A DNA stretch of 64,000 nucleotides from an uncultured Pseudomonadota bacterium (GTDB lineage Bacteria; Pseudomonadota; Alphaproteobacteria; Rs-D84). The stretch is taken from NCBI GenBank assembly GCA_902795435.1, contig CADBLE010000008.1, positions 28,028 to 92,027 of the forward strand. Reading direction: 5' to 3'. The notes below the pieces were generated by a model. It made no database searches. It was not told the DNA's origin and saw only the letters and a list, made by a program, of their open reading frames with translations. Position numbers and translations under genes: made by a program. Of this stretch, positions 15,972-28,439 are shown in pieces. Position 1 is the stretch's first letter; each line of letters opens with the position of its first letter.

Positions 15972-15998
15972 AAAAAAACACCCCGAATAATCGGGGTG
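15972..15998 (-). terminator. Terminator of surface-protein paralog A
   Basis: Stem CACCCCG (15979-15985) / CGGGGTG (15992-15998); A-run 15972-15978 gives a T-tract on the minus strand; conserved at 26900-26927. Confidence 0.7.
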
Positions 15999-16066
15999 CA
16001 AAGGAAAGGGAGAGAACCCTTTTTATCGGGACGGACACAACCCCGCCCCAATCTCGTTTAACAACA

Positions 16067-17281
16067 TTACCCGTTGTTGCCACTGGTTGTTGTTTGTTCT
16101 GGTGCACTGAAACGCCAACCCTTAAATGTTTTACCCTTAATAGTTTGGGCTTTAACTGGGGTACGAACGTCAGAACCGTATGTCGCGGTTCCCGCATTAT
16201 TTGCAGATACATCTTCTGCATCTGCATTTGACCAATTAATTGTAATTGTGTTCGCTTCACAACTTGCCAAAGGATTACCAACAAACCCGAAAAATGCAGC
16301 ACGAAAACGCAAATCCGACGAATAAGTAAACGCCAGATTATCTGCACATATAACCGCACAATCTTCAGCACAACTAGATGCAGAACCAGGGTTTTGTGTA
16401 TAAACCCAAGGGGTAGATACAGATATTAAGCTTTCTCCACTTGGAGTATAGCTATCAAGCTTACAGTAGCAATATTGAGCACCAGTATTACCGGTTTCGT
16501 CAACTAATGTTTCGTATACTGTTGGATTACTCCAATTGTAACCGTCAAAATCACCATCCATAAATCCTTGTGATGTACTGCAACGTCCATGTCCTGCTAT
16601 TCTACCTTTATCACCATAATCCACAGCCCATGTATTTTTTTCTGTCATTCCCCAAACATTTGCTTGTCGTACTTTTTCACCGTTATTTCTTATAGCCGCA
16701 TTATATATAGTACTGCCAACTTTTTTTACTTCAGTATTACCAATTATATTTATCAAATCAGGTGCACCTGGTTTTAGATGCCATCCATTTTCACATGCCG
16801 TTGGTTCGCATGTATCGGTGCCGTTGCCGTAATAATCATTACCGCTGATTGCGGTTGCGTGGGCGATTGCTGTTATGGAATCACCAACATTATTTATATC
16901 GCATGCACGATAACATTGGGTATTACTGCTTGAACCGTCTGCGGAACTGCCAAAACCAGATGGGCATGTTTCTATACCCTGAGCCAAATTTTCATTATAT
17001 TGAACCGTTTCACCACCCGCACAGAAAGAACCCGCCGGACATGTTGTTATTGTTTCGGAATCTTTCGGTAAATATTTTCCCGCATTTAACAAATAATTTA
17101 TTGTTTCATATTCTGCTGTTGCGTTGACGGTACCTTCATAAACACCGTCCATATTTGTTGATGTTGCCGCGTTATCGTATGTTTTGTTTTGTTGCATTAA
17201 ACCATTTGACGGAAAATTTTCCGCCATTGCCGGTGCAACCGACATTATCAACATAGAACTTAAAAATATTTTATTTTTCAT
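16067..17281 (-). CDS. Secreted Cys-rich surface protein paralog A, with C-terminal Listeria-Bacteroides-repeat (Flg_new)-like domain
   Basis: Signal peptide MKNKIFLSSMLIMSVAPAMA. The C-terminus ITINWSNA..TATYGSDVRTPVKAQTIKGKTFKGWRF fits the Flg_new pattern (Y/T-V-x-F ... yG ... P ... GytFxGW). Paralog of 26997-28232. Confidence 0.75.
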   Translation of the reverse strand: MKNKIFLSSMLIMSVAPAMAENFPSNGLMQQNKTYDNAATSTNMDGVYEGTVNATAEYETINYLLNAGKYLPKDSETITTCPAGSFCAGGETVQYNENLAQGIETCPSGFGSSADGSSSNTQCYRACDINNVGDSITAIAHATAISGNDYYGNGTDTCEPTACENGWHLKPGAPDLINIIGNTEVKKVGSTIYNAAIRNNGEKVRQANVWGMTEKNTWAVDYGDKGRIAGHGRCSTSQGFMDGDFDGYNWSNPTVYETLVDETGNTGAQYCYCKLDSYTPSGESLISVSTPWVYTQNPGSASSCAEDCAVICADNLAFTYSSDLRFRAAFFGFVGNPLASCEANTITINWSNADAEDVSANNAGTATYGSDVRTPVKAQTIKGKTFKGWRFSAPEQTTTSGNNG

Positions 17282-17303
17282 TTTTCTTTCCTTTCTTTTG
17301 TTA

Positions 17304-17349
17304 AATAAAAAAACAGACAAATAACGTCATCAACGTTATTTGTCTGTTT
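17304..17349 (-). promoter_or_regulatory. Terminator-like hairpin in the 5' leader of paralog A
   Basis: Perfect 17-bp stem 17311-17327 / 17333-17349. On the minus strand it is followed by a T-run, then RBS AAAGGAAAG and the ATG. Conserved at 28257-28302. Confidence 0.6.
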
Positions 17350-17357
17350 TCAATCTT

Positions 17358-17370
17358 GTGCGAATTTCAT

Positions 17371-17376
<6 letters not shown>
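17358..17376. promoter_or_regulatory. Palindrome GTGCGAAT-TTC-ATTCGCAC upstream of paralog A (operator or RNA hairpin)
   Basis: Perfect 8-bp arms. The paralogous site 28311-28329 is GCGTGAAT-ACA-ATTCACGC, so the differences between copies are compensatory. Confidence 0.5.
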
Positions 17377-17466
<90 letters not shown>

Positions 17467-17554
17467 AAACTGCGCCTTTCACGACTTTCACTATTTTTAT
17501 TCCCCCTATCTCGATATGAATATTATACCAAAAATCGCATCTTAAAAAAAGCAC

Positions 17555-17580
17555 AAAAAAACACCGACATTTTGTCGGTG
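17555..17580 (-). terminator. Terminator after the GNAT gene
   Basis: Stem CACCGACA (17562-17569) / TGTCGGTG (17573-17580); A-run on the plus side gives a T-tract on the minus strand; the same stem sequence recurs at 28395-28418. Confidence 0.7.
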
Positions 17581-17583
17581 TTT

Positions 17584-18312
17584 TTATTTAGAATTTAATA
17601 AATAATTTTGTATTTGTTGTTGTCTTAAACCTCTGATATCTGGCAACAATTTATCATTGAAATAAAATTGTTCGGTTCCGTCTTTTTTAATTAAACCGAT
17701 TGAATCTATTTCTTGTTTTTCATTTACATAAACCGCAATTGGTCTGTGTTTTGATTTGCGTAATAACAAAATGTCTGCGTTTGCCATTTGTTTTACACGA
17801 AAATCACCAATATTCCATTTGAATACCGGATAAATACCCGCGGTTGGACGTTTTAATTTTTTTGTAAAATTTTGAGTATCTTGAACATTTGTTCTGATAT
17901 TATAAGATTGATGTTTATAAAACCCAAGCGCCCAAGAATAAGACATACCATGAATATTAGCATGAAATAAATTTACCGCATGTTCAAATTCAGCCAATAA
18001 ATTTTTACCGATTCCATGACCTTGAAATTCAGGTTTCACAAACAAAGAATCAAGATAAAAATCCCCCAACCCCAATTGATAACCATTTGCAAAACCGACC
18101 AATGAATCATTTACATACGCCCCGAACGCCACATTGTTATCAAAATTTTTCCACGCCTTGTAATAAGCATCTATAATATTGTCATAAGCACCATACATAA
18201 ACATGTGGCCATGTTGGGCACGTGCAGATATTTCAATATCAGCAAAATTATCCCATAATTTTGGGTCTGATTTTTGATTAAAAATTGGTCTTACTACATA
18301 ATTTTGTTGCAC
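17584..18312 (-). CDS. GNAT family N-acetyltransferase
   Basis: Acetyl-CoA binding motif FQGHGIGKNLL. Confidence 0.65.
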   Translation of the reverse strand: MQQNYVVRPIFNQKSDPKLWDNFADIEISARAQHGHMFMYGAYDNIIDAYYKAWKNFDNNVAFGAYVNDSLVGFANGYQLGLGDFYLDSLFVKPEFQGHGIGKNLLAEFEHAVNLFHANIHGMSYSWALGFYKHQSYNIRTNVQDTQNFTKKLKRPTAGIYPVFKWNIGDFRVKQMANADILLLRKSKHRPIAVYVNEKQEIDSIGLIKKDGTEQFYFNDKLLPDIRGLRQQQIQNYLLNSK

Positions 18313-28374: not shown

Positions 28375-28388
28375 TAGAAAACTAGCAC

Positions 28389-28418
28389 AAAAAAACACCG
28401 ACAAAAAAATGTCGGTGT
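28389..28418 (-). terminator. Terminator after ssb
   Basis: Stem ACACCGAC (28395-28402) / GTCGGTGT (28411-28418) with flanking A and T runs. Confidence 0.7.
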
Positions 28419-28439
28419 TTTTTATAAAAGATGAGATCT

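Follow-up and report, generated by a model that had tools for sequence, protein, structure and literature searches.

Two paralogous genes for secreted proteins in an uncultured alphaproteobacterium (GTDB lineage Rs-D84) each stand directly behind a long hairpin and a run of T residues, the anatomy of a signal that ends transcription. This raises the question of how transcription could ever reach these genes, and what would decide whether it does. We addressed this question in a stretch of 64,000 nucleotides (nt) of contig CADBLE010000008.1 (assembly GCA_902795435.1, positions 28,028 to 92,027), which we call the window and number from its first base; the two genes together with their leaders are cassettes A and B. 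An initial annotation of the window had read the hairpin as a transcription attenuator, relieved by an antiterminator factor or an alternative fold, and had taken the palindrome in front of it to be selected either as an RNA hairpin or as a dyad-symmetric operator. We found that in cassette A an open reading frame (ORF) carrying a dinucleotide repeat runs into this hairpin, and we consider it likely that the hairpin and T-run are an intrinsic terminator acting as the attenuator of a phase-variable, ribosome-mediated leader switch. For the antitermination factor, the ribosome itself is the most likely candidate.

A repeat-bearing leader ORF ends inside the terminator of cassette A

On the minus strand of cassette A, a predicted extended -10 promoter is followed by a Shine-Dalgarno-like (SD-like) sequence and by a leader ORF that starts with GTG (Table 1). 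The leader peptide reads VKVVKGAVFY(TH)n...ANEIRTRLKTDK*. Its ORF crosses (CA)15, a 33-nt duplication and the palindrome, and the TAA that closes it (17338-17336) falls within the terminator hairpin, 13 nt from the start of its 5' arm. One of the remaining two frames runs into a TAG right after the repeat and the other into a TGA shortly after it; between them they stop at distances of 66 and 79 nt before the hairpin. These two distances are due to the 33-nt duplication, which, as a multiple of 3, leaves the read-through frame in place.

Our proposal is that transcription would begin at the extended -10 promoter about 170 nt upstream, and that a slipped-strand change in the repeat number n would shift the translating ribosome among the three frames. 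In two of these frames the ribosome would leave the RNA ahead of the hairpin, by 31-48 nt or, in cassette A, by 66 and 79 nt, and over all leaders by 25-79 nt; the terminator would fold, and transcription would stop before the surface-protein gene (OFF). In the third frame the palindrome would be translated as well and the ribosome would stop within the 5' arm, at the TAA in the case of cassette A. It would then occupy the base of the stem while the polymerase makes the 3' arm and the U-run, so that the terminator could not form and the ribosome-binding site (RBS) and gene would be transcribed (ON). By its reading frame, cassette A with (CA)15 is predicted to be ON.

The promoter motif TGgTATAAT is found 30-60 nt 5' of the leader start codon at the homologous loci L009, L031, L043, L044, L118 and L151/L152, and a purine-rich SD sequence with ATG or GTG is present in every leader class that we compared. 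Two other family copies, L005 and L061, lie directly behind a TGgTATAAT promoter and a 5' untranslated region (UTR) with no repeat leader, and are apparently constitutive versions. At its 5' edge, the conserved cassette begins with the intrinsic terminator of a GNAT gene, and a nearly identical terminator sequence recurs after ssb, upstream of cassette B.

Table 1. Positions of the leader elements and genes of cassettes A and B within the window (TRF, Tandem Repeats Finder; aa, amino acids)
Feature	Position	Strand	Details	Basis
GNAT-gene intrinsic terminator	17585-17557	minus	5' edge of conserved cassette	Terminator scan, cassette alignment
Extended -10 promoter, predicted	17530-17522	minus	TGgTATAAT; ~170 nt upstream	Read directly; conserved in homologous loci
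SD-like sequence	17506-17501	minus	GGGGGA; 9 nt before leader GTG	Read directly
Leader ORF	17491-17336	minus	51 codons + TAA, GTG start	Translation, frame analysis
(CA)15 tract in leader ORF	17462-17433	minus	Sets reading frame	TRF
33-nt tandem duplication in leader ORF	17437-17371	minus	2 exact copies (11 codons)	TRF (period 33, 100% match); translation
Palindrome A, small RNA hairpin	core 17376-17358; 10-bp stem 17378-17356	minus	GTGCGAAT-gaa-ATTCGCAC	Covariation, folding
Leader terminator A	17351-17307	minus	20-bp stem 17351-17309, loop GAT, T7 17313-17307	Terminator scan, covariation, folding
RBS A	17295-17286	minus	GAAAGGAAAG	
Cassette A gene	ATG 17281, stop 16067	minus	404-aa secreted cysteine-rich protein	
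(CA)10 tract B	28374-28355	minus	ssb terminator directly 5'	TRF
Palindrome B	core 28329-28311; 10-bp stem 28331-28309	minus	GCGTGAAT-tgt-ATTCACGC	Covariation, folding
Leader terminator B	28304-28259	minus	20-bp stem 28304-28262, loop TAT, T8 28266-28259	Terminator scan, folding
Cassette B gene	28232-26997	minus	411 aa, ~50% identical to cassette A protein	

The palindrome and terminator hairpin precede both paralogs

The coordinates and sequences of the palindrome and hairpin check out on the minus strand in both cassettes. Direct reading thereby confirmed the anatomy described in the initial annotation: a palindrome with two compensatory double changes, a perfect hairpin with the same 17-nt arms in A and B (AAACAGACAAATAACGT / ACGTTATTTGTCTGTTT), a T-run, and only then an RBS of the form AAAGGAA(A/G)G and the ATG (17281 in A, 28232 in B). 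The placement of a hairpin and T-run between the predicted promoter and the RBS, on which the attenuator reading had been built, is likewise supported as the anatomy of a leader attenuator. Between the palindromes of A and B, pair 2 changes from U-A to C-G and pair 4 from C-G to U-A, and each palindrome is separated from its long hairpin by 6 nt. The 17-mer arm occurs at four sites in the window, namely the two arms of each cassette; when up to 3 mismatches were allowed we found 5 matches against 0.49 expected, and 0 of 100 shuffles reached 5. Counting the flanking A-U and G·U pairs extends the stem to 20 bp, and the loops of A and B differ in a single base.

Both long hairpins were listed by the terminator scan. 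They fold with a free energy of -24 kcal/mol (z = -8.9 and -9.5), and the palindromes with -11.2 (A) and -10.8 kcal/mol (B; z = -4.4 and -4.6), values that were equaled by 0-1 of 200 shuffles in either case. In both cassettes only the T-run and ~15 nt lie between the hairpin and the RBS, which leaves no space for a further promoter after the hairpin. Since the leader as a whole is ~81% identical between A and B, their identity alone is no proof of selection; what speaks for selection is the covariation seen among diverged homologs.

Stop positions are maintained across diverged leaders

We compared the upstream regions of 51 family members and found several leader types. The type seen in the window has a constant order: promoter, SD sequence and start codon, '...CGCAG-WWWY-CTA', dinucleotide repeat, small palindrome, long hairpin with T-run, RBS and ATG. 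It recurs with heavy sequence turnover in genomes and metagenomes of Candidatus (Ca.) Enterousia, in five diverged classes and several species. The repeat is (CA)n in class W (window, L006, L009, L031, L043, L044, L083, L151, L152), in classes X (L011, L012), X' (L020) and X'' (L118), and in class Y (L114); it is (GA)n in class Z (L033), and L040 is an additional (GA)n example.

In all seven of the seven sequence variants, two frames stop at -25 to -51 relative to the hairpin (-66 and -79 in cassette A with its duplication), and the third stops at -1 to +13. The OFF-frame stops always lie 5' of the palindrome and the ON frame passes through it. Comparison of L006 with L009 demonstrated that this design survives a 2-nt insertion or deletion by means of different stop codons. 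Shuffles of the inter-region gave such a three-frame design by chance at 5-19% per variant, and because the leader classes are homologous these per-class figures cannot be multiplied. Within class W the read-through frame needs n = 0 mod 3, as is the case for cassette A (n=15), L044 (n=27) and L151 (n=24).

Repeat number differs between assemblies of one locus

P0002, the protein most closely related to that of cassette A, is encoded behind a class W leader in each of two independent assemblies. Although the flanks of this locus are 100% identical between the assemblies (300 nt upstream, 1400 nt downstream), the repeat is not: with (CA)24, L151 encodes a leader peptide of 43 aa whose stop, at +13, falls inside the hairpin, whereas L152, with (CA)20, encodes a 25-aa peptide that stops at -33. 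This same-locus polymorphism is that of the nearest related locus between assemblies, not of the window's own two loci. Other loci that carry the repeat module within identical flanks also differ in n between assemblies (13 versus 12, 17 versus 19 and 7 versus 11). Among further same-locus look-ups, P0042 has a type-2 leader that is the same in both assemblies and P0057 is a leaderless copy; a further comparison via P0064, P0012 and P0007 is not on record.

Covariation places both structures in the RNA

We counted covariation in the terminator stem over eight sequences from five classes, with class Z left out after it was misaligned by MAFFT. The palindromes, some of which have 4-nt loops and were also misaligned by MAFFT, were aligned separately for nine leaders. 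In the terminator stem, 98.8% of cells were paired and seven pairs had double changes (18 cells), a result matched by 0 of 500 shuffles; slid controls were only 35-60% paired. The palindrome was paired in 95.6% of cells, with double changes in 6 of its 10 pairs, and here too 0 of 500 shuffles matched.

Both stems contain G·U pairs, many of them in the terminator stem. Since a G·U pair would be an A·C mismatch on the opposite strand, we conclude that the structure is selected in the sense-strand RNA. The half-sites of the palindrome are unlike between paralogs of one genome, and together with the G·U pairs this favors an RNA stem over an operator for a dimeric regulator. Selection on the structure, as the initial annotation had claimed from two sequences, is thus supported for pairing as an RNA stem but not for a dyad operator. 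We read the palindrome as an RNA hairpin that came with the repeat module described below. As to its role, we infer only that it could make the RNA polymerase pause until the ribosome has caught up, or could act as a first barrier.

The minimum free energy (MFE) structure of every class, computed with RNAfold, contains both hairpins, and neither MFE nor centroid structures of the whole leader include an antiterminator fold that competes with the terminator. The alternative fold by which read-through had been envisaged was therefore not borne out by folding. At the Rfam gathering threshold, only tRNAs passed in the window and 17 loci, and in E-value mode the leader region and the type-2 leaders gave only sub-threshold, generic terminator-like matches. 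Nor does the leader have the traits of amino-acid-type attenuators (trp/his/leu/thr), as it contains no codon run except the repeat-encoded (Thr-His)n.

Cassette B resembles a partly deleted copy

Alignment of cassette B (28384-28423) with cassette A (17463-17585) on the minus strand revealed a ~78-bp gap directly after the upstream terminator, and with this gap the promoter, the SD sequence and the leader start are gone. The sole GTG that remains in B is in an OFF frame with a stop at -48, and the TAA of the read-through frame, at 28291-28289, lies within the hairpin. Without a promoter and leader start in B the two cassettes are not equivalent. The initial description of a common element upstream of both paralogs therefore stands for the palindrome and hairpin, but it does not extend to the promoter and leader start. 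From its sequence, cassette B is predicted to be silent or to be expressed only via read-through from ssb. Its gene, repeat, palindrome and terminator are intact, and it may be a silent or archival copy.

Alternative explanations for the hairpin and repeat

Several other explanations could account for parts of these observations. In the initial annotation, the palindrome was a possible operator of dyad symmetry within the spacer of a weak promoter, with TTGYGY on one side and TATGAA/ATTGAA on the other, and the hairpin an attenuator governed by a protein antiterminator or an alternative fold. The -35-like and -10-like hexamers of such a promoter can indeed be read 18 nt apart in both A and B, and cassette B has no other visible promoter. 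However, the -10-like hexamer is unconserved in other leader classes, with none at all in class Y, and a transcript from this spacer promoter would start inside the 5' arm of the hairpin, whereas the conserved TGgTATAAT promoter and the leader ORF lie upstream. An operator for one dimeric regulator would also retain the sequence of its half-sites, while this palindrome covaries, has G·U pairs and is unlike between paralogs of one genome, and the alternative fold is absent from the MFE and centroid structures. We regard this explanation as highly improbable. A different possibility is that the repeat frame acts mainly via Rho-dependent polarity or mRNA decay, with the hairpin a stabilizer or secondary element. 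OFF frames do leave 30-80 nt of untranslated RNA before the hairpin, and direct-fusion genes with the same module have no strong terminator after the repeat. Yet the hairpin, with its 20 bp and U7-8 tail, has the canonical form of an intrinsic terminator, and the ON-frame stop falls at or in its 5' arm in every class; a stabilizer would need neither a U-run nor a stop in that position. This alternative appears very unlikely.

It is also conceivable, although in our view unlikely, that the mini-ORF is left over from the 5' end of an older, now decayed phase-variable gene, so that the hairpin would be only a terminator or insulator and the paralog would be expressed via read-through or an unrecognized promoter. 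In its layout the leader is homologous to an N-terminal module of other genes, whose repeat is joined in frame to a signal peptide; decayed module remnants lie upstream of some leaders (L114, L151), and cassette B has the look of a partly deleted copy. Against this reading, the architecture and three-frame stop design of the leaders outlast heavy turnover in five classes and in several species, SD sequences and start codons have been retained, and the long repeats continue to vary in number. The hairpin is also followed by too little sequence to hold a promoter.

The ribosome-mediated switch that we favor has weaknesses of its own. Its promoter and leader translation are only predicted in an uncultured organism, and many leader starts are GTG. 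The stop of the ON frame is not past the hairpin but inside its 5' arm, or, in class X, adjoins that arm at -1, so protection of the stem would need tight transcription-translation coupling. The predicted ON frame is found in only 3 of 14 distinct leaders, and the probabilities of the frame design are not independent, the leader classes being homologous. Cassette B has the hairpin and palindrome with no promoter or leader start, so the device is unworkable there as described. Finally, the model has no need of the palindrome and does not explain why it is conserved.

Relation to known switches

A leader of this kind has been demonstrated experimentally for pil1 of Streptococcus gallolyticus, and pil3 has been described: a leader ORF with GCAGA repeats precedes a premature stem-loop terminator, and short peptides that end 39 bp before the hairpin correspond to low expression, while frame-shifted long peptides that end within or after the hairpin lead to ribosome-induced antitermination (PMC3894217). 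The pil1 and pil3 hairpins have energies of -18.7 and -28.2 kcal/mol (PMC3894217). The leader studied here follows pil1 and pil3 in the order of its elements: a promoter (here a predicted one), an RBS, a short leader ORF whose repeat unit is not a multiple of 3, a terminator of similar stability (-24 kcal/mol), a second RBS and a gene for a surface structure. The predicted OFF-frame stops fall 25-51 nt short of the hairpin, compared with 39 bp in pil1, and in both systems the long-peptide frame stops within the hairpin. At the level of sequence, the defining features of the pil1-type attenuator are all present, with the promoter as a prediction and the varying repeat number seen at the closest related locus. 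This kinship is one of functional kind, not of homology, and on our side it comprises sequence-level features as opposed to the experiments in S. gallolyticus.

The two systems also differ in several respects. There is no sequence relationship between them, and our host belongs to the Gram-negative Alphaproteobacteria and has a reduced genome, whereas S. gallolyticus is a Firmicute. In place of the pentanucleotide GCAGA stands a dinucleotide, (CA)n here and (GA)n in some relatives; only one of three frames would be ON, compared with both out-of-frame states in pil1; and an extra, covarying small hairpin stands between repeat and terminator. In addition, the device here serves many paralogs of one family, and its repeat module is common to genes with an in-frame fusion. 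Beyond the two pilus operons of S. gallolyticus, we found no other repeat-bearing leader-peptide attenuators described in the full-text searchable literature.

Ribosome-controlled termination as such is well established. In the pyrBI and trp/his/leu leaders of Escherichia coli, a ribosome that closely follows the polymerase decides whether an intrinsic terminator forms. In the pyrBI type the ribosome itself blocks the terminator and no antiterminator hairpin is needed, and in classical attenuators a pause hairpin upstream of the terminator synchronizes ribosome and polymerase. Our proposed switch would likewise let the position of the ribosome on the leader ORF decide terminator formation. Unlike in these leaders, its input would be genetic, with repeat length setting the frame, and not metabolic, and regulatory codons and an antiterminator are absent.

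Repeats within coding sequences are another familiar route to phase variation, as in Neisseria opa (CTCTT) and in the signal-peptide regions of Helicobacter pylori genes (CT/CA). Here, too, a repeat near the 5' end of members of a surface-protein family would shift the frame and allow paralogs to switch independently, and most metagenomic matches use the Enterousia-type module within the ORF in just this fashion. In the window, by contrast, the repeat belongs to a leader ORF of its own; the frame state would be relayed via a terminator, and the structural protein would never be truncated. In the 5'-UTR switch of Clostridioides difficile cwpV, site-specific DNA inversion changes the RNA fold with no repeat and no leader translation. 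The likeness to cwpV is that a heritable change in leader DNA would decide the fate of an intrinsic terminator before a surface-protein gene; the difference is that a repeat and leader ORF take the place of DNA inversion.

A repeat module with wider distribution

The sequence around the repeat belongs to a module, '..GCTGAAAsC-CGCAG-AAAYC-TA' + (CA)n + 'nGTAa', that is conserved at the nucleotide level at 65 distinct loci in metagenomes of rumen, gut and termites (L077-L150) and is found in the window at 17474-17433 and 28383-28355 on the minus strand. It is mostly fused in frame to the signal peptides of various surface-protein genes. Because the module is conserved while being read in two reading frames, peptide constraint offers no explanation for its conservation. 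Under a crude start-codon rule, the direct-fusion genes (L077-L150) were ON in 4 of 33 assembled consensus sequences, and the bias towards OFF at leader-type loci (3/14 ON) and direct-fusion loci (4/33 ON) exceeds the chance expectation of 1/3 ON. We also observed what is left of a second, decayed module (for example, gtgaaagtcgtgacaagcagtagattacacaag and gggaaacctacacacatggg); at L151/L152 these remnants lie ~200-330 nt upstream of the gene, and at L114 ~60 nt upstream of the leader start. From their sequences, they suggest repeated insertion or turnover of the module.

A tentative reading, which we hold to be possible but doubtful, is that the ~22-nt unit, (CA)n, 'nGTAa' and the hairpin 19-25 nt downstream make up a portable phase-variation cassette that these gut alphaproteobacteria would put to two uses, fusion to a signal peptide or a leader ORF before terminators. 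Its conserved part would then be a nucleic-acid signal, either for a trans-acting factor that tunes slippage or as a pause or termination hairpin sensed by the ribosome. If the latter were true, a ribosome-sensed hairpin would let the frame state control transcription even in direct fusions.

The protein family and its other leaders

The proteins of cassettes A and B (404 and 411 aa) are ~50% identical to each other and have a signal peptide and conserved cysteines. No Pfam family passed for either paralog; the only match, weak and below threshold, was to Flg_new in the C-terminal end of B. The family comprises at least 276 proteins, multi-copy per genome, in Candidatus Enterousia and related uncultured Alphaproteobacteria of animal guts, and genomes of this lineage are below ~1 Mb (PMC12306168). 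In the window, tblastn and motif scans found no family copies or (CA)n tracts beyond two of each.

At the DNA level the two paralogs are mosaic. The leader and approximately the first 170 nt of the coding sequence are 81% identical (17108-17404 versus cassette B), the last ~200 nt and the 3' flank are 84% identical (15972-16271 versus cassette B), and the middle of the genes cannot be aligned. With such a pattern of sequence identity, copies could recombine with one another. Besides the window, a single public contig, L076, encodes an identical cassette A protein; it ends inside the leader hairpin at its position 1 and so gives no repeat number. The end of L076 probably reflects a break in the assembly, brought about by the recurrence of the leader in front of several paralogs.

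Other members of the family have leaders of different construction. In another Ca. Enterousia metagenome-assembled genome (MAG), five paralogs (L024, L032, L036, L053, L064) carry a 98-bp segment ~60-170 nt upstream of the gene start (1501). It is bounded by the inverted repeats AAAAACCTAGGTTT / AAACCTAGGTTTTT and occurs in both orientations, which are 91-97% identical as reverse complements, and in one orientation a TTGCAA -35 element faces the gene. By its sequence, this segment looks like an invertible promoter switch. Further paralogs have a ~190-nt leader RNA, located ~30-220 nt upstream (L001-L004, L008, L010, L015, L022, L052, L153/L154), with variants at L019, L030, L046, L049, L013, L014, L017, L026, L045, L047, L042 and L037. 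This RNA has a three-way alternative pairing, CCTCCAAC / GGTTGGAGG / CCTCCAACC, that overlaps a terminator, and it covaries as CTCCTGAC/GTCAGGAG and CCCGACC/GGTCGGGG, with 6 of 10 pairs compensatory. No Rfam family matched it at gathering score, and it is a candidate for a new attenuator or riboswitch-like element.

If the leader of cassette A works as proposed, the same logic as in the S. gallolyticus pilus operons was built independently, which suggests a general solution rather than a curiosity. Such a design would toggle an intact gene, and a truncated protein would never be made. The n mod 3 rule can be checked directly on existing metagenome and metatranscriptome reads. With repeat leaders, putative invertible promoters or structured leader RNAs in front of its genes, the Ca. 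Enterousia family would be a heavily phase-varied repertoire of antigens or adhesins, and it may offer a lead to how unculturable, symbiont-like gut bacteria handle their hosts or phages.

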